Shown here one piece after another: positions 24,585 through 33,467 of a stretch of DNA of 64,000 nucleotides. Below the pieces are notes generated by a model. It saw nothing but the letters and a program-made list of their open reading frames with translations. It made no database searches and was not told the DNA's origin. The stretch covers positions 352,001 to 416,000 of the forward strand of contig CAWJGT010000034.1 in NCBI GenBank assembly GCA_963842525.1, given 5' to 3'. How positions within the stretch are numbered: position 1 is the stretch's first letter; each line of letters begins with the position of its first letter. The DNA is from an uncultured Holophagales bacterium. Its GTDB lineage: Bacteria > Acidobacteriota > Thermoanaerobaculia > Multivoradales > UBA5704. The translations under genes and the position numbers were made by a program.

Positions 24585-26295
24585 TCAGCGGGGCCGGTAG
24601 AGCCGCAGCACCGGCCCCGTCCGCAGGTCCGTCGGGACCCACTCCTTCACCAGCTCGAAGGACCGGAAGATCTCCTGGTACCGCTCCGCCATCGCGCGCT
24701 GGTGGGGCCGCGTCAGCGCTGCCGGGTCCTGGAACCGGAGATAGGCGGAATTCGCCACCAGGACATAGTCGAACCGTCGCAGCTCGGCCATTGACAGCCG
24801 GGTGACGAAGCGCCGGTGCAGCACCTTGTACTCGCCCGCCGGAAAGTTGGGCGTGTAGGTCTCCTTGGCGATCGACGCGCCGCGCGGCACGTTCTCCCGG
24901 ACCCAGGCCGCGGCCACGTCCCGCGTGCTCGGGCTCGCCAGGCCGATCGCCTGCCGGACCGTGCGGTCCGCCGGCAGCCAGAGGCAGACCGCAGCAAGCA
25001 AAGCGGCCAGCGCCGGACGCAGCCCGCGCTGTCGAAGGCCGCCCAGCCGCTCGATCCACTCCGCGATCCCCACCCCGAGGAAGGCCGCCAGGATCGGGAG
25101 CGCCGGGTAGAGGTTGCGCTTGACCACCATGTGCATCGACGAAATCAGCACCAGGTACGCCACCGGATAGGCGGCGAGCCAAAGCCACCGCCGCCGCTCG
25201 CGTCCCGCAGCCAGGTACAGGATGAGCCCTGACAGGCCAGCGATCAATGCCGGCAGGCCGAAGCTCCAGGCCAGGTCCCGTGTGTAGGCGGCTACATTGC
25301 TGTGCGGCATCACGCCGAGCCAACCGCCCCGGCCGTACTGGCGGGCGCCGAAGAACACCCCTCTCCGGCCTTCGAACGCCGCCTCCGGGAAGACCACGAG
25401 ACTGGGCATCACAACGAGGAACGCCGCGATCGCCGCGAGACCCGCCCAGAGGAGACCCAGCCCGAAGTCCCGCCGCGAGATCCGCCAACGCACCCAGACG
25501 GCCACGATCGCCACCGCCACGAGGCCGGCCGGATACTTGCTCCCCGCCGCCAGCCCGGCGGCGACCCCGGCGAGGAGGTAATCGACCGCCCGCTCCTCCT
25601 CCAGCAGCCGTGCCACGAAAAGAAGGCAGACCGTAGCAAAGAACGCTGACGGGACATCGCAGATATTGAGGTGCGATCCCTCGTTGTACAGCGGCGAGAA
25701 GATCAGCAGCAGTGAGCCGAGAGCTCCTGCCCATATGCCTCCCATCCGTTCGCCGATCCGATACACCGGAACGACCGTGAGCGCCGAGAGCAGCCCTACG
25801 ACCGATCGCAACACGAGCCACGACACTCCCAGCGGCTCCGTCACTCCCACGAGGCGCGCCCATCCGCCCACCACGCCCGGGAAGAGCGACGCCAGCCAGA
25901 GGGCCAGTGCGTCCGCGTAGTACATCAAGTGTGGATAGACGAACGAGAGGCGCAGCGGCTGTCCGCCGACGATCTTGCTCGCATGGTGGTAGTAGGTCCC
26001 CTCGTCCGCGTAGTACCGCCCTTCGACCTCATGCGAAAGGCCGGTGAAGCGGACCGCCAGCGCGAGCACGACCAGAGCCGGCAGGAGCAGCGCCAGGACG
26101 AGCCCGGCCCTTTTTTCCCGCAATCCGGCGGGCCAGGAGGGCACCCAGCCAGAACACCGTCGCCAGCAGGGCCGCCACGACGACGACGCGGTCTACGACA
26201 GCCGGCAGGCCATGACCGAGAATGTCGAGGAGCCAGAGGAGGAGCACCAGGACCCACGAGAGCCCGGCCGCCCTGAAGCACACCCGCGACATCAT
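24585..26295 (-). CDS. GT-C / ArnT-PMT_2-like membrane glycosyltransferase, frameshift near 26110
   Basis: YYADEGTY loop, [11 protein letters not shown], multiple TM helices. The hydrophobic N-terminus ([11 protein letters not shown]..) is in another frame across a T7 homopolymer, and its ATG overlaps the ynfA stop. Confidence 0.75.
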
Positions 26296-26662: not shown

Positions 26663-26959
26663 CTACCAGACGAACAACAGGTCGAACCGGTTGTCGGACG
26701 CGGCACCCGCGTGGTTGAAGCACCGGACCGACGCGCTGAAGTCGGCTCCTCCAGTGGTCCAGCTCACCACCTTGCACTGGTCCGCGTCCTCTCCGCCATA
26801 GGCCGTCACCTGAACGTGGCCTCCGGCTCCCCACGAGCCGCTCCCCGCGAACAGGGCGCCCCCGCCCACGGCCTTGCAGGTGACGGTATAGGTGCCGACC
26901 GCGGTTCGGGTCACGCTGATTCCCGCGGACCTGGCGAGCGAATTGTAGGAGTAGGGCAC
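26663..26959 (-). pseudogene. Probable C-terminal remnant of a secreted beta-rich protein
   Basis: [44 protein letters not shown] reads like an extracellular beta domain with a Cys pair. No signal peptide or clear RBS. Confidence 0.45.
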
Positions 26960-27275: not shown

Positions 27276-28502
27276 ATGTCACATTCCAAGACGATCGTAT
27301 GGCGCAGTCTGCCGGTCCTGGTCGCGCTCGTCAGCCTCCTGACGATCGGCGTTCAGACCGCCGGAGCCGCTCCCCGTGTGGACGTCTCGCAGTCCCTCGG
27401 GCATGGCCTCCACACCGTCCAGTTCTCCACCCCGCGGGGGACGCTCAGCGTACGCCTTCCGGGCGACATGGCCCAGGGAGACGCGGTCACCGGGACGTTC
27501 GCCGCGTCCTACGCCGGTCTCGCCGGCTACGAAGTCGAGATCGGTGGCGTGAGATCGCTGGTCTCGGAGGGGCGGATCTCCACTCTGCTGCCGATGGCCG
27601 AGCGGACCCGTGTGACCCTGCGCAACCCGCAGGGCCGGGTCATCGCCAGCACCTCGCTGTCGGCCCTGCCGGAAGCGCCGGACCTGACCGCACTGTTCGC
27701 AGCCGCGCCGATGCTCCTGCCTCGCATCAACCAGGCAGGCCTTCCGGTGCGGGTGCTGGGTGACTTCGCAGGGTCGTTCGACGGAGTCGCCGTAACCCTC
27801 GGCGGCCGGCCGGCCGAGCTGCTGGCCGTATCACCCCGCACCCTCGTGGCGGGCACGCCGCCGGACCTTCTGGGGCTCACCCGCATCGTCGTGAGCCGCG
27901 GCGGCGTCACGGCGGAGGGGGACCTCCAGAGCTTCGCGATCCGTACCGAGATGGCTCAGCAGACGCTCCGCGAGGGGGAACGGACCTCGCTGCGGGTCCG
28001 CATCGAAGGCCTCCAGGGCTGGAAGGAGGCGCTCACCCTGAGCGCGATCAACCGGACGCCGGATACCGTCCTGCTCGAAGGTGCCAATGGAAACCTGCTC
28101 GATCAGTCGATCGCGGCGGACGCGATCGATGGCCGCGGCACGTTTTCGACCGAGCTGAGCCTGCTCGGGCTGCGCGATGGGCAGCTCGATGTGTCGATCG
28201 TGGTCGGCACTCCCACCACGGGCCCACAGCACCTGGTCAATGTGACGACACCACCCCACATCACCGCCACTTCCGCGTATGCGCCTCCCAGCAGCCACGC
28301 CACCAACGAGACCTGGCCGCCCCACATGGTGAACGTCTCCTGGCCCCCCCACACCGCAAACGTGACATGGCCGCCGGCCCACGTTGGCAACGTGAGCTGG
28401 ATGGTTCACCACACGGGCACGACGGTCTGGCAACTGCCGGCGACGGATACCAATCCCAAAGAGACCCCCAAGGAGTCCAAACCCGGCGATATTCAGAACT
28501 GA
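27276..28502 (+). CDS. Secreted hypothetical protein with C-terminal H-x2-N-V-[ST]-W-P-P repeats
   Basis: RBS GGAGAAGGAG, signal peptide ending AGA-A, beta-rich body, ~7 His-anchored repeats at 28230-28430. Confidence 0.8.
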   Translation: MSHSKTIVWRSLPVLVALVSLLTIGVQTAGAAPRVDVSQSLGHGLHTVQFSTPRGTLSVRLPGDMAQGDAVTGTFAASYAGLAGYEVEIGGVRSLVSEGRISTLLPMAERTRVTLRNPQGRVIASTSLSALPEAPDLTALFAAAPMLLPRINQAGLPVRVLGDFAGSFDGVAVTLGGRPAELLAVSPRTLVAGTPPDLLGLTRIVVSRGGVTAEGDLQSFAIRTEMAQQTLREGERTSLRVRIEGLQGWKEALTLSAINRTPDTVLLEGANGNLLDQSIAADAIDGRGTFSTELSLLGLRDGQLDVSIVVGTPTTGPQHLVNVTTPPHITATSAYAPPSSHATNETWPPHMVNVSWPPHTANVTWPPAHVGNVSWMVHHTGTTVWQLPATDTNPKETPKESKPGDIQN

Positions 28503-28597
28503 CATTCCGGCAAGCCGGAACGAGACAGCCGGCCCGACCCGCGATGGAACCGGCCGGGCAGGCTGTCTCCACCGGCTCCGGCCAAAGGAGAAAAACC

Positions 28598-29710
28598 ATG
28601 CAACGCAGCATTCGATCCAATTTTATTGCCTTGGCAGCTTGCCTCCTGGCCCTGCAGGCCGCTCGACCGGCTGCGGCCGAGGCGGGGGCTCCCACCCCGC
28701 CGCAAGACCTCCCCAAGGTGTGGTTCAACCAACACGCCATCGAGGGGGCGCAGGCAAAGATCGACGTCAACGATCCGTTGGCGGTGTTCCGCCTGGTCTT
28801 CTCTCAGCTCGCCGACGAGGTGGTCGTCTACCCGACCGAAAATTACTACTACTACCAATTCCAGAACGGCGGCAAGACCTACTGGGGGAACCTCCGGCTG
28901 GATGCGAACGATCGCGACCGGGGCGTGCTCCACCTGGGCTACTTTCAATTCAACGAGAGCGGCATCTCGAAGGATCTCACCGGTTTGGGCCGTCCGCTGA
29001 CCATCGCCGATGGCGTCCGGCTCTCGAAGGTGGACCCGTGGCGATACGACGTCGGATTCGAAGGGAGGACGGTCCGCTTCAGGCTCAACGACACGGGCTA
29101 CGCGCCGCCGCAACGCGCTCGCCTTCGCCCCGGCGAGACCTACGTGGGGCCGGTGTTCGACGAATCGGGTCTCAGGTTCCACCTGATCTTCGATCGCGAC
29201 ACCCGGCACTTCATGTATGTCCTCAATGAGGACGTCGAGGTGCCCGAGGAGCTCATCCGCTTCAGCGATCGGGTCCTGATCGGCCGGCGTTCCGCGTTTG
29301 CTTTCCTCGACGACAGCGCCAACACGCGCAAGGTCCTCATCGCCGTGCACGCCAACAATGTCAACCGCAACAATTACTACGACGGGCCGTTCGATCAGCT
29401 TCCCGACAACTATGCCGAACGGACGCAGATCCAAGGCTTCATCGAGGCCGCCTACCCGTACATGAAGGGCAACATCGACCGGGTCGGCAAGCTCCTCAGC
29501 AGCAACGACACGCAGAGGGTCGCGATCGCACCGTACGCCGTCTACAGTCACATGGGCGAGCTCCAATTCGTCGACGCCTGCGCCGGAAAAGCCGGCAACG
29601 AGGGCAGCTTCTACACCTGTGTCACGCCCGACCTGCAGAGCATGCAGATGGCCTTCGGTCCGCCGGTGCCGATCGGCGAAGCGTCGGTGCGCGGAAAGGT
29701 GGGCGACTGA
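28598..29710 (+). CDS. Secreted hypothetical protein (YPTENYYY / NNYYDGPFDQLPDN motifs)
   Basis: RBS AAGGAG, signal peptide, aromatic-rich globular sequence, C-terminal Cys pair. No function assignable. Confidence 0.8.
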   Translation: MQRSIRSNFIALAACLLALQAARPAAAEAGAPTPPQDLPKVWFNQHAIEGAQAKIDVNDPLAVFRLVFSQLADEVVVYPTENYYYYQFQNGGKTYWGNLRLDANDRDRGVLHLGYFQFNESGISKDLTGLGRPLTIADGVRLSKVDPWRYDVGFEGRTVRFRLNDTGYAPPQRARLRPGETYVGPVFDESGLRFHLIFDRDTRHFMYVLNEDVEVPEELIRFSDRVLIGRRSAFAFLDDSANTRKVLIAVHANNVNRNNYYDGPFDQLPDNYAERTQIQGFIEAAYPYMKGNIDRVGKLLSSNDTQRVAIAPYAVYSHMGELQFVDACAGKAGNEGSFYTCVTPDLQSMQMAFGPPVPIGEASVRGKVGD

Positions 29711-29921: not shown

Positions 29922-32900
29922 TCAGCCGAGCTCGTCGAGAAGCCCACGGGCCTCGCGAAGGTCGCCCGTGTCGAACCCCTCGGTGAAGCGGCCATAGATA
30001 CCTGAGAGCAGCTCGCTGGCCTCGGCCTTCCGGCCTTGACCCGCCCACAGCCGGGCGAGGCTCATCGCGGCCCGCAGCTCCAGGGACTTCGCGCTCTGGT
30101 GGCGGGCGACGTCGAGAGCCCGGTCGAACAACTTCTCGGCCTCGGATTCCGTGGCACCGCTCCGGCGGAGCAGCTCTCCCTTGAGACGCCAAAGCTCGGC
30201 ATCGAACAGACGCTGTCCGCCGCTGTCGGAGATCTCCAGGCCCTTCTCGACGGCCGCGAGCCCTTCGGGGATGCGGTCCGCCTGGAGACAGCTTTCCGCC
30301 AGGAGGGCCAGGTGATTGGGCACACCTGCGAGCGCCCCGAGAGAAAGCCTTCCCCCGATGCCCTCGCGCATCCGCTCGAAGGCGGAAGTCGCCTCTCCAA
30401 GAGCCGACTCCGCCCAGGCGCGAAGGAAGACCGCCACGGAGATGAAGTGCCGATAGCCCTGCTCGGTCGCGAGGGAGGCCAGCTCTCCGATCTGCGCCAG
30501 GACCTCCTGCGGCTCACGCCGGTACGCATGGATCTCGCTGGCGAAGTACACCACGAAACAGCGCGAGAACAGGGCTTGCAGCTCCCGGGCCTCCGCCACC
30601 GCCTGGCGGCTCTGCCGGAGGGCCTGATCAGGATCGCCGAGGAGCCACAGCGTCCAGGCAAGGTTGGCCATTCCCTCCAGCAGGAGGTTTCCCGAGCCGG
30701 GCAGGGAGAGGTCGACGCTCGCATCGGTCGACTCGAAAAGCGAGATCGCCTCCTCCAGGTGGATTCGCGCGCGGGCGAGCTCGCCGCGGCAGAGCAGGAC
30801 GAAGCCCAGCCCCTGATGGCTCACCCTAAGGAGGCCCGGCAGCTCCTGGCGGGCCATTTCGTGGAGCCGTTCCGCGATCTCGAGGCCGCCGTGCATGTCA
30901 CCGCTGATCAGACGGTTGATGAACAGCCCGCGCAGGGTCGCGAAGACCTGTGGCGTCTGACCCACGTCGCCGCAGAGCTCCCAGGCCCGCTGGAAGGCGT
31001 GCTGCACCTCCGGCGTCGAGAAGGTCCGCGTGGCGGCCAGCGCCATGCCCAGGGCGAGCTGCAGCGCGATCTCCTGCTGGATCCGCTCGCCGCTCTCGGG
31101 CAGCTCGGCGAGCAGGGCGAGCGCCCGCTGGAGGTGGCCCCCGGCTTCCAGATAAGCCGAGCCCTGGGTCGCCCTCTCGCCTGCGCGTTGCCAGAGCGGG
31201 ACCGCCTGTGCGGGCAGGCCCGCCTCGGTGTAGTGATGGGCCAGCACCTCGGGTTGGGCTTCGACGATCTCGGGGAACCGTCTTTCCAGGACGCCCGCAA
31301 CCCGGCGATGGAGCCGCCGGCAGTCGGCCCGCAGCAGCGAGGCATAGGCCGCGTCCTGCAGCAGGGCGTGCTTGAACAGGTAGCGCTGGTGGGGCCGGCG
31401 CCCCCGCCGGAACAGGATTTCGGCGGCGACCAGGCGGTCCAGCTCACGCTCGAGGTGCTCTTCGCTGCACGGAGCCACGGCGTACAGCAGGCCGGCCGGG
31501 ATCTCCCGGCCCAACACGGCCGCGAGCTGCGCGATGTCCCGCGCCGGGCCGAGCCGGTCGAGCCGGGCTCGCAGCCAGCCTTCGAGCGTGGCGGGGATTT
31601 CGAGCGAGGGCCTGCCCGAGGACGCCTCCGGACCGGTAGCGGAGCCCGCCTCCAGGATCATCCTGGTCAGCTCCTCGACGAACAGCGGGACGCCGTCGGT
31701 GCGGGCGGCGATCTGCTCGCGGACCGCGGGAGCCAACGACCGATCGGCCGTCAGCCGCTCGACCATGAGCCCGGCCTGGGTGCGGCTCAGCGGGCTCAGG
31801 GTCAGGCGCGTCAGGTCGGACCGCTGCCCCCAGGGCGGCCGGAGCTCCGGGCGGAAGGTGAGGAGGAGCAGGAGGGGGACCGCGGCGGCGTGCTCGATGA
31901 GCAAGCCGAGCAGCTCGAGGCTGGAAGGATCGAGCCAGTGCAGATCCTCGACGACCAGGAGGAGCGGCTGCCGGTCGGCCATCGCCAGGAGCAGGGCGAG
32001 GACCGTCTCGAGGGTCTGACGGCGCTGCTCCTCGGGGCTCATCGGCGGCAGGCTATGGCACTCGCCGGCGGGAATCGACAACAGGAAGGCGAGCAGCGGC
32101 ACGGCCTGCGGGAGGTCGGGGACCAGGCGCGCCGCCTCCTGCTCCAGGCGAGCGAGCCGGTCCTGCGGCGGCTCGTTGCGGTCGGCGGCGAGCCAGCGCT
32201 GCAGCAGCTCGCGGATCGGGTGCAAGGCGCTGTGGCGGTGGTACGGCGAGCCGTGGGCCTCCAGCCAGTCCGCGGCGCCGGCAGTCACCCGCTGCCGCAG
32301 CTCCCAGACCAGGCGCGACTTGCCCAGGCCCGCCTCGCCCGCGAGCAGGACCACCTGCCCCGCGCCCTCCCGGGCCACGGCCCAGCGTTCCAGCAGCAGG
32401 CCCAGCTCCTGCTCGCGCCCCACCAGCGGAGTCAGGGAGACGGAAGCCTCGATCCGGGTCTGGGCCCCGCTTTCGGCCAGGACTCGCCAGGCGCGCAGCG
32501 GCGGGTCACCCCCCGGCAGCGAGACCGGCACCAGCTCTTCGCACTCGAAGTACCCCGCGATCAACCGGTGTGTCGCCGAGCTGACCAGCACCTTGCCGGG
32601 CGCGGCCAGGCTCTGGACCAGGAATGCCACCTCCGGGGCCTCGGTCAGGGTCACGTCGCCGTTCGCGGCGCCCTCGCCTGCGGCGGTGATCATCGGGCCG
32701 GTGTGGATGCCAATCCGCAGTGTCCAGGCCCCGGGTCGCGCCGGGAGCTGTCTGGCCCGGGTGACGATTTCCAGGGCTGCGCGAAGCGCCCGGTGCGCGT
32801 CGTCCTCGTGCGCGAGGGGATAGCCGAACCAGGCCACCCAGCCGCGGCCTCGCCTACGGCCGAGGCGCCCTTCGAAACGATCCACGACCTCGGCCAGGAG

Positions 32901-33467
32901 ATTTTGCAGGGCCGGCATCTCCGCGAGCAGGTCCTCGGGATCGAGCGGAGCGTCTCCTGCCTCGGCGAGACTGCAGCTCAGCGCCGTCGCCTGCCGGCGC
33001 TCCGCCGCCCGCTGGAGTGAGGGTGCCTCAGCGGCGTCCATGCCGCCCGTGCGGTCTTCGAGCGGGTAGGAGCCGATCCTGGCTGGCTCCTCCCCAGGCG
33101 CTTCGGTCGCCTTCTCCGCCGGCACGGCCGGAGCGAGCAGGCGGTATCCCCGCTTGGGAATGGTCTGGACATAGCGCGGCTCCCGGGCGTCGTCTCCCAA
33201 GGCCTTGCGGAGGCTGTGGATCGCCTGGGAGAGCACACCTTCCTCGACGAACGCGCTGCCCCAGACGGCCGCCAGCAGCTCGTCCTTGGAGACCACTCTC
33301 CCCTCCTGGACCGCCAGATAGATGAGCACATCCATGACCCGCGGCTCAAGCCGGACCGACTTGCGGTCCGAGCACAGCGTGCCTTCCGCCTGGCGAACCA
33401 ACCACTCGCCGAGCCGGAACCCGCCGATCCGCGGAAAGCGTGTGGCTGGCTCTTGCGACTCGCTCAT
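29922..33467 (-). CDS. Winged-helix (Trans_reg_C/CadC-like) + class III cyclase-like + AAA/STAND ATPase + TPR regulator
   Basis: RLEPRVMDVL..VSKDELLAAVW..LRKALGD..QTIPKRGYRL. AERRQ..FGYPLAHEDDA..RIGIHTG. GEAGLGKS, EDLHWLD, GVPLFVEE, FKHALLQDAAY. C-terminal ELRAAMSLARLW..FTEGFDT. Confidence 0.92.
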   Translation of the reverse strand: MSESQEPATRFPRIGGFRLGEWLVRQAEGTLCSDRKSVRLEPRVMDVLIYLAVQEGRVVSKDELLAAVWGSAFVEEGVLSQAIHSLRKALGDDAREPRYVQTIPKRGYRLLAPAVPAEKATEAPGEEPARIGSYPLEDRTGGMDAAEAPSLQRAAERRQATALSCSLAEAGDAPLDPEDLLAEMPALQNLLAEVVDRFEGRLGRRRGRGWVAWFGYPLAHEDDAHRALRAALEIVTRARQLPARPGAWTLRIGIHTGPMITAAGEGAANGDVTLTEAPEVAFLVQSLAAPGKVLVSSATHRLIAGYFECEELVPVSLPGGDPPLRAWRVLAESGAQTRIEASVSLTPLVGREQELGLLLERWAVAREGAGQVVLLAGEAGLGKSRLVWELRQRVTAGAADWLEAHGSPYHRHSALHPIRELLQRWLAADRNEPPQDRLARLEQEAARLVPDLPQAVPLLAFLLSIPAGECHSLPPMSPEEQRRQTLETVLALLLAMADRQPLLLVVEDLHWLDPSSLELLGLLIEHAAAVPLLLLLTFRPELRPPWGQRSDLTRLTLSPLSRTQAGLMVERLTADRSLAPAVREQIAARTDGVPLFVEELTRMILEAGSATGPEASSGRPSLEIPATLEGWLRARLDRLGPARDIAQLAAVLGREIPAGLLYAVAPCSEEHLERELDRLVAAEILFRRGRRPHQRYLFKHALLQDAAYASLLRADCRRLHRRVAGVLERRFPEIVEAQPEVLAHHYTEAGLPAQAVPLWQRAGERATQGSAYLEAGGHLQRALALLAELPESGERIQQEIALQLALGMALAATRTFSTPEVQHAFQRAWELCGDVGQTPQVFATLRGLFINRLISGDMHGGLEIAERLHEMARQELPGLLRVSHQGLGFVLLCRGELARARIHLEEAISLFESTDASVDLSLPGSGNLLLEGMANLAWTLWLLGDPDQALRQSRQAVAEARELQALFSRCFVVYFASEIHAYRREPQEVLAQIGELASLATEQGYRHFISVAVFLRAWAESALGEATSAFERMREGIGGRLSLGALAGVPNHLALLAESCLQADRIPEGLAAVEKGLEISDSGGQRLFDAELWRLKGELLRRSGATESEAEKLFDRALDVARHQSAKSLELRAAMSLARLWAGQGRKAEASELLSGIYGRFTEGFDTGDLREARGLLDELG

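Follow-up and report, generated by a model that had tools for sequence, protein, structure and literature searches.

The window analysed here is a stretch of 64,000 nucleotides (nt) from an uncultured Holophagales bacterium (Acidobacteriota, Thermoanaerobaculia; positions 352,001 to 416,000 of contig CAWJGT010000034.1, assembly GCA_963842525.1). Two neighbouring genes on its forward strand, designated A (P0001) and B (P0002), are co-oriented and separated by a spacer of 95 nt. Protein A ends in an array of short repeats with the pattern H-x4-[S/T], and protein B belongs to an unnamed family. Comparison with other loci that carry B homologs indicates that the pair exemplifies a two-part module that is widespread. 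The features of the two genes are as follows.

27276-28502, + strand: gene A, 408 amino acids (aa), putatively secreted repeat-tailed protein (open reading frame (ORF) and translation)
27276-27368, + strand: signal-peptide-like N-terminus of A, about residues 1-31 (basic residues, LPVLVALVSLLTIGV, TAGA), by sequence reading
27378-28208, + strand: body of A, residues 35-311, three beta-sandwich (immunoglobulin (Ig)-like) domains as modelled by AlphaFold2
28230-28433, + strand: tail array of A, residues 319-386, seven H-x4-[S/T] units (HLVNVT, HITATS, HATNET, HMVNVS, HTANVT, HVGNVS, HHTGTT)
28598-29710, + strand: gene B, 370 aa, putatively secreted protein of an unnamed family (ORF and translation)
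28598-28678, + strand: signal-peptide-like N-terminus of B, about residues 1-27 (MQRSIRSN, FIALAACLLALQAA, RPAAA), by sequence reading
28829-28855, + strand: conserved block YPTENYYYY of B, residues 78-86 (alignment of 94 B domains)
29369-29413, + strand: NNYYDGPFDQLPDNY, the block of B with the strongest conservation, residues 258-272 (alignment of 94 B domains)

A Shine-Dalgarno-like sequence (GGAG/AAGGAG) precedes both start codons, GGAGAAGGAGAGG lying before the ATG of A and AAGGAG before that of B. Both proteins begin with a basic-plus-hydrophobic segment, read directly from the sequences rather than with a signal-peptide predictor, and the structural models place N-terminal helices there (residues 12-25 of A, with a low predicted local distance difference test score (pLDDT), and residues 3-21 of B). 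We infer from these features that both A and B are exported.

The tail of A reads as the original prediction, made from the letters alone, had quoted it. The units begin at H319, H328, H341, H350, H359, H369 and H378, and all seven have Ser or Thr five residues after the His (position +5). Five of them contain an N-x-S/T sequon, which confirms the number claimed, and four have Trp at position +6. The claim that the codons had diverged while the protein pattern was kept was also borne out. Tandem Repeats Finder detected a period of 27 nt in the tail DNA (2.6 copies, 72% matches), and column identity among the five aligned units is 76%, with Ser/Thr codons that vary between them, which indicates divergence at the DNA level. 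The pattern is rare in the 9.95-Mb genome: H..N.[ST]W has 16 matches in the six-frame translation, the sole cluster being the four matches in the A tail, and a density of at least six H-x4-[ST] units per 150 aa is reached in only 8 of 86,654 frames of at least 60 aa, gene A among them, with a maximum of eight units. Three of the other seven frames were inspected and proved to be simple repeats or spurious frames. This rarity and the single cluster argue that the tail pattern of A did not arise by chance.

The body of A was modelled as all beta with a pLDDT of about 85-97 (AlphaFold2, 7-sequence alignment). Foldseek searches with it returned only generic multi-Ig proteins, e.g. ICAM-5, contactin, SbsB and SGBP-B. 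The domain profiles gave scores below their cut-offs, both for IPT/TIG (PF01833) on residues 164-216 (18.1 bits, gathering cut-off 20.9) and for the NCBIfam model Soli_cterm (20.2 bits, cut-off 29.05), and PADLOC gave no match for A or B. Two homologs of A only were found, P0122 (42% identity) and P0123 (30%), and both keep the architecture and the tail pattern; the same type of tail unit occurs at the locus L015. One of the two homologs is encoded on a contig equal in length to the one that carries the closest homolog of B. A paralog of the A body is encoded on contig C9 of the same genome (L003, 1177-2391, - strand; 35% identity over residues 42-319). It has no His-Ser/Thr tail and ends, as judged by eye, in a segment resembling a helix-forming one. 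The body of A is thus a module that can occur on its own, with neither the tail nor B.

Protein B and its family

The segments of B that had been singled out in the original prediction as motif-like, i.e. YPTENYYYY, GNLRLD (residues 97-102), DESGLRF (residues 188-194) and NNYYDGPFDQLPDNY, are present and all lie within the most conserved blocks of the family. Thirteen residues are invariant in all 94 aligned B domains (P79, E81, Y85, G97, D188, R244, N258, D262, G263, P264, D266, R307 and Y313), and another seven, N82, Y83, Q267, D270 and N271 among them, each occur in 93 of the 94. The identity across 36 aligned homologs from several phyla is 39-58%. The aligned homologs carry N-terminal hydrophobic segments, some of which are lipobox-like (L-A-[AG]-C). 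The only Cys residues frequent in the family are two near the C-terminus, and these are missing in several members. The model of B, built from a 37-sequence alignment, is compact and mostly beta with C-terminal helices (pLDDT 88.6, predicted template modelling score 0.81).

That B belongs to no family that could be named, as had been stated before, is in line with all searches made. The Pfam-A scan at an expectation value (E) of up to 1 gave only a chance-level GW match (E 0.21), NCBIfam and PADLOC gave no match, and no relative was found in PDB by sequence or by profile. The fold searches with Foldseek produced no match above background, the best template modelling (TM) score being 0.10, with good sampling only for residues about 52-161. 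A match to the sliding clamp with this TM score of 0.10 was rejected as spurious. The search of the ESM Atlas gave no usable match. Taken together with the model, this strongly suggests that the fold of B is new among solved structures. The combination of D266-x4-N271 and I-D-x-x-G resembles the catalytic loop of kinases; a kinase reading was rejected since no protein-kinase-like fold appeared in any search.

The family is large. The first, word-indexed search (E ≤ 0.001) found at least 979 homologs among the 7999 candidates scored. Among the matches listed, 120 homologs all lacked a precomputed Pfam domain, and those with a name were called only "hypothetical". A profile hidden Markov model search of 1.84 billion representatives found 929 clusters (50% identity) at E ≤ 0.001 and 796 at E ≤ 1e-10. 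In the species-genome collection, at least 519 candidate stretches contained relatives of B, and at least 524 relatives were found on metagenome contigs. The hosts include Alphaproteobacteria (chiefly Hyphomicrobiales), Acidobacteriota, Thermoanaerobaculia, Aquificota, Thermodesulfobacteriota, Saccharibacteria and Woesearchaeota. A search of 40 related genomes found no B, neither in the 5 of the same genus nor in the 24 of the same family. The G+C content around A-B is slightly lower (0.644) than that of the flanks (0.68-0.71). The patchy distribution, the wide host range and the lower local G+C content suggest acquisition by horizontal transfer.

Two members of about 720 aa (P0124 and P0128) are tandem duplications in which both B domains are complete and have a full motif set, and they carry no array; nine other matches, of 707-751 aa, are of similar size.

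His-Ser/Thr arrays at B loci

The surroundings of B relatives were scanned in two collections. In the species genomes, 80 loci were used and an array was defined as an ORF with at least six H-x4-[ST] units per 150 aa. In the metagenomes, the best 80 of at least 524 relatives were used with a looser definition, i.e. at least five units per 150 aa or at least three variant units (H-x3-G-x3-S-x-Y). The 80 loci of each collection are the best matches to the query B and not a random sample of the family, the genes are stop-to-stop frames rather than curated ones, and the motif thresholds, which differ between the scans, were set by us.

An array ORF was found at 44 of the 80 species-genome loci, and at 42 of them it lies directly upstream of B in the same orientation, typically with 15-25 units per 150 aa. 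At L077, the array is directly downstream of B, and at L023, arrays are present on both sides. The taxa with arrays include Thermodesulfobacteriota, Aquificota, Thermoanaerobaculia, Devosia and many Hyphomicrobiales. At four further loci (L017, L021, L029 and L031), a variant array H-[IV]-x-x-G-x3-[ST]-x-Y lies upstream of B, and L032 has a short form of it. Similarly, 21 of the 80 metagenome loci have an upstream co-oriented array, in 17 cases with at least nine units; one array is divergent (L122) and another lies 1.4 kb upstream (L139). The upstream sequence was too short for a decision at 23 of the 80, and 5 of the 80 showed only weak, chance-like frames on the minus strand. All six best metagenome matches to the B of the window are accompanied by an array. 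B homologs thus co-occur with His-repeat proteins, as expected for the pair proposed in the original prediction.

The position of Ser/Thr is the shared property of these arrays. Following 1746 His residues in the 42 partner proteins, position +5 is occupied by Ser in 67% and by Thr in 16% (83% together), where the background Ser+Thr content is 8-22%. Conservation is absent at all other offsets, with Asn at +3 in 6% and Trp at +6 in 18% of the units, and N, G or D are common at +3 or +4. The common signal of the arrays is therefore His...Ser/Thr, and the Asn and Trp residues seen in the A tail are lineage-specific. At L091 (3-1109, + strand), the His units give way to RRRGY-x-x-R-S-S, where Tyr takes the place of His and Ser still stands at +5. 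The array at L157 has a period of six residues (SH-x4-SH).

The proteins that carry the arrays are mutually unrelated. Some are small signal-plus-repeat proteins of 190-330 aa (RSWHxRxRSWH or HTKNVTWPP types), others have an Ig-like body as A does (L015, and L017 with the variant motif), and a third type comprises Hyphomicrobiales proteins of 900-1550 aa with arrays such as HRPIGS, HVKPWS and HIPRVSRAQ. The number of units per partner ranges from 5 to 94 for one B. Those of the large Hyphomicrobiales partners that were read have a conserved N-terminal domain in common, and PG_binding_1 was found in two of the five scanned with Pfam. In the upstream ORFs of L035, L042, L044, L030 and L070 (900-1550 aa), this common domain is about 600 aa long, has no Pfam match and contains motifs such as DHGxDGRSYF and CWNxADFRRRxWGL; several of the partners end in a long Gln-rich segment.

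Arrays also occur fused to B. Nine of the 14 long B-family representatives inspected carry 7-40 H-x4-[ST] units in the same polypeptide, N-terminal to B in P0244, P0235 and P0243 and C-terminal to it in P0236, P0242, P0280, P0265, P0188 and P0176. Among the others, P0142 has the variant repeat, P0252 ends at the first units and three have other N-terminal segments. A protein of 1055 aa from a Bacteroidota metagenome-assembled genome (P0135) begins with an A-like body, continues with variant repeats and has the B domain at its C-terminus.

A quick IQ-TREE phylogeny of the 94 B domains, with Shimodaira-Hasegawa-like approximate likelihood ratio test (SH-aLRT) support only, connects the type of motif with the type of B. 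All six rows with the variant motif (H-x3-G-x3-[ST]-x-Y) fall into one 12-row clade of B (SH-aLRT 99). The labels of motif class required 13 changes on the tree, against a mean of 31 after shuffling, and none of 500 shuffles matched the observed number; since related rows share labels, this test shows clustering and not strict co-evolution. The B of the window is sister to P0003 and P0004 (support 99).

No third gene common across phyla was found when the neighbours of 81 loci were clustered, the only recurrent frames being B, the partner and their antisense shadows. The module is thus self-contained. An ABC ATPase, a xanthine dehydrogenase and the lepB-rnc-era-recO genes were considered as parts of the cassette and rejected as clade synteny only.

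The spacer between A and B contains a further feature:

28506-28589, + strand: strong RNA stem-loop in the A-B spacer (minimum free energy -49.1 kcal/mol, z -4.65)

None of 200 shuffled sequences folded equally well. The stem-loop has no T-run and the terminator scan found no terminator; likewise, no promoter-like or terminator-like sites delimiting an A-B operon were found in the scan. The hairpin could attenuate or stabilise the transcript and so give A in excess over B. As a cassette-wide feature it was ruled out, z being below -2 in only 8 of 41 cassette spacers.

Other genes noted around the pair are a membrane glycosyltransferase gene of the PMT_2/PMT family (24585-26144, - strand; E 9e-16), which lies 1.1 kb upstream of A on the opposite strand and was not found beside B at any other locus, and a gene convergent on B (29922-33467, - strand) for a 1181-aa regulator with Trans_reg_C, cyclase-like, AAA_16 and TPR domains, for which no link to the cassette was seen. 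A candidate ORF of 98 aa (26663-26959, - strand; MPYSYNSLARS...) without a Pfam match overlaps other frames just upstream of A.

Possible function of B

The reading that we prefer, to which we would give about an even chance, is that B is an extracytoplasmic enzyme acting on each H-x4-[S/T] unit and, by analogy with plant burpitide cyclases, occurring either split from its substrate or fused to it. The array rides on whichever carrier a lineage has, which here is a three-Ig-domain protein with a tail predicted to be disordered. Each unit would be recognised by B as a linear motif and then altered or processed; most likely B would act on the Ser/Thr hydroxyl or link the side chains of His and Ser/Thr. 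The candidate reactions are a His-to-Ser/Thr side-chain link, a His-directed change of the hydroxyl and regular cleavage of the array. The spacing would suit a tight hairpin pairing residue i with i+5, which, speculatively, would bring both side chains together. The invariant acidic/amide cluster of B may hold a divalent metal. Charged and polar residues conserved to this degree in homologs from several phyla are typical of active sites, which suggests a catalytic role, and the role of B as a reader of linear motifs is consistent with the tail of A, which is predicted to be disordered (pLDDT 24-31 over residues 314-408, AlphaFold2), as expected of a linear-motif substrate. We infer the direct contact of B with the units, the catalysis and the target atoms from the sequence patterns described above.

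Several findings weigh against an enzymatic role of B. Neither the 37- nor the 94-domain alignment contains a conserved His, Cys or Lys, the residues that usually serve as redox-metal ligands or nucleophiles. An oxidase with copper or heme is an unlikely identity for a soluble extracytoplasmic protein lacking them. There is no relative of B in sequence or fold, so function cannot be transferred by homology, and to our knowledge the periplasm offers few group donors, which limits the plausible chemistry. The ratio of one B to many units would also suit a non-catalytic role. The predicted disorder of the tail may merely reflect the 7-sequence alignment used. An adjacent array is lacking at 28 of the 80 species-genome loci, and 29 of the 80 metagenome loci have none despite at least 1 kb of upstream sequence; B can therefore exist without a neighbouring array. 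Seventeen of the 28 species-genome loci form one partner-less clade of the tree, of Xanthobacteraceae, Pseudolabrys and Rhodoplanes (support 91), with lepB-rnc-era-recO-B synteny. Either the partner is encoded elsewhere in this clade or B has another role there.

At eight loci of this Xanthobacteraceae/Pseudolabrys clade (L026, L034, L041, L047, L057, L066, L068 and L071), B stands behind lepB-rnc-era-recO with no adjacent array. A query of five array-less genomes with the partner from L061 found a relative of its N-terminal domain in one of the five; weak matches in two more genomes covered only the first ~140 query residues, with no H-x4-S array in the portion seen.

A more far-reaching form of the enzymatic reading is possible, though on balance doubtful. 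B would then be a new class of extracytoplasmic peptide-modifying enzyme, with a fold unseen among solved structures, that reads His together with Ser/Thr (spacing +5, in one clade +8) and introduces a new modification, for example a histidinoalanine-type link or a His-directed O-modification, into tens of units per carrier. It would follow a burpitide-like logic and would have spread horizontally via bacteria, the Candidate Phyla Radiation (CPR) and DPANN.

We consider it unlikely that B is non-enzymatic, i.e. a receptor, an anchor, an assembly nucleator or a chaperone that docks on the H-x4-[S/T] units to hold, fold or display the carrier. Co-occurrence, fusions in either order and the match between motif and clade would suit binding equally well, the partners bear surface or envelope domains (Ig-like, PG_binding_1, fn3, InlB B-repeat) and some B homologs have lipobox-like N-termini. 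However, one B per 5-94 units would be a poor stoichiometry for docking, and 13 invariant, mostly charged or polar residues together with 39-58% identity exceed what a docking surface typically needs. Moreover, the units have no conserved hydrophobic core for a folded repeat, and the tail is predicted to be disordered. A related candidate, the reading of the units as sorting signals of the PEP-CTERM or LPXTG type, was rejected: the units are repeated 5-90 times and no hydrophobic C-terminal stretch was seen by eye in the partners read.

Distinctly unlikely, in our view, is a His ladder that buffers or scavenges metal, with B as a metal-loading or metal-dependent partner acting through its acidic cluster. 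The His residues are regularly spaced, with up to 94 in one protein, and surface His-rich zinc proteins are known, such as those of the polyhistidine triad (Pht) family (PMC3842936). In B, the invariant or near-invariant residues E81, D188, D262, D266, D270, N258 and N271 form a cluster that appears suited to bind Ca, Mg or Mn. A metal ladder would nevertheless leave unexplained why Ser/Thr is found at +5 in 83% of cases while other positions drift, and why Tyr replaces His in part of the L091 array, and no metal transporter or regulator is common across the loci. The known His-rich metal proteins use clustered His (HxxHxH or His runs) rather than single, spaced His residues, which also counts against a ladder.

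The original prediction had favoured specific chemistries for the substrate-modifier pair, among them N-glycosylation at N-x-S/T and His-Trp cross-linking of the units with B as the maturase. For the family as a whole, this is very improbable. It is suggested by the window itself, where five of seven units are sequons, four have Trp at +6 and the PMT_2 gene is close by, and the unit H-x-x-N-[VI]-T-W recurs in P0242, L006 and L015. The lineage-specific Asn and Trp are, however, poor grounds for a general model: with the family-wide frequencies given above, many arrays, e.g. HRPIGS, HNKKRS and HVKPWS, have no Asn or Trp at those places, and N, G or D at +3 may just favour a turn. PglB-type N-glycosylation requires an acidic residue at -2 (D/E-x-N-x-S/T), and none of the five sequons of the A tail has D or E there. 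In some bacteria, PMT-type enzymes attach O-linked mannose to Ser/Thr residues of proteins that are exported; the PMT_2 gene is not shared with any of the other loci compared. B is without an evident sugar or phosphate donor, and we know of no obvious sugar donor for a soluble periplasmic protein. A metal- or heme-binding repeat with its maturase was also considered at the outset; B lacks the conserved His or Cys residues that might mark a heme or copper maturase. The earlier reading is thus partly supported: it was right in kind, in that the co-occurrence argues for two extracytoplasmic proteins that are functionally coupled, while its chemistry is wrong or unproven.

A mere chance neighbourhood of A and B, with a low-complexity repeat that has no specific role, is hardly credible: the strong hairpin between the genes and the lack of operon-defining sites in the scan would fit it, but both collections and distant phyla show the same arrangement, natural fusions exist and the genomic background is 8 of 86,654 frames.

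If B acts on the H-x4-[S/T] units, the module would represent a new extracytoplasmic post-translational system with a very simple recognition code, and its enzyme family, of about 930 clusters (50% identity), would be one so far unrecognised. Proteins now called "hypothetical", hundreds in number and among them the very large envelope proteins with His repeats in Hyphomicrobiales, would then gain a function, and protein engineering could make use of a short tag on which a dedicated soluble domain acts. Even binding alone would make B a new peptide-recognition domain with a two-residue code, which would be of interest.

Comparison with known systems

The literature search on the H-x4-[S/T] motif and on His-rich periplasmic repeats, with most subscription journals outside its reach, found nothing relevant. 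Within the literature searched, the A-B module was found to be undescribed and far from every known system. Four groups of proteins are nevertheless comparable in part.

The Ig-like and IPT-TIG surface proteins resemble A in its body of three tandem beta-sandwich domains, for which Foldseek returned multi-Ig proteins and the S-layer protein SbsB. In contrast to them, A scores below the Pfam gathering cut-off and has a His-Ser/Thr tail and a B partner that are not theirs.

The motif of the Pht proteins is HxxHxH. Like the arrays described here, these proteins are extracytoplasmic and contain repeated His-containing motifs (PMC3842936). The present arrays differ from them in having a single His with an obligatory Ser/Thr at +5 and a dedicated, unnamed partner domain.

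Multi-core precursors of peptides made by ribosomes and modified after translation (RiPPs) that are processed after export comprise fungal dikaritins, cyanobactins and microviridins, according to PMC11253845. The A-type arrays share with them the many near-identical short units per precursor, in which only the modification-relevant residues are conserved. The enzymes of the multi-core RiPPs are UstYa-type oxidases, proteases and ATP-grasp ligases, none of which matched A or B in the Pfam scan. Moreover, the carriers of the A-type units are large folded proteins (up to 1550 aa) and not small leader-core peptides.

The closest parallel in architecture is offered by the plant burpitides, whose repeated cores are either fused to a BURP-domain cyclase or located in a separate precursor (PMC11253845). 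Their cores contain aromatic residues or His, e.g. QLLVWRGH of moroidin (PMC11253845; PMC12186524; PMC10107690). The A-B module similarly occurs both split, as in the window and at the 42 loci with an upstream array, and fused, as in P0135, P0244, P0242 and others; the likeness is one of architecture only. B gave no BURP match in the Pfam scan (E ≤ 1) and no fold match. BURP domains have conserved Cys-His motifs that bind copper, whereas the invariant columns of B include no His and there are no conserved Cys-His pairs. The hosts of the A-B module are prokaryotes, its conserved pair is His...Ser/Thr and not Tyr or Trp, and it is known from genes alone. The resemblance to burpitides is therefore an analogy of architecture and not membership: in both, one dedicated domain is paired, in the same or in a separate polypeptide, with an array of short repeated units.

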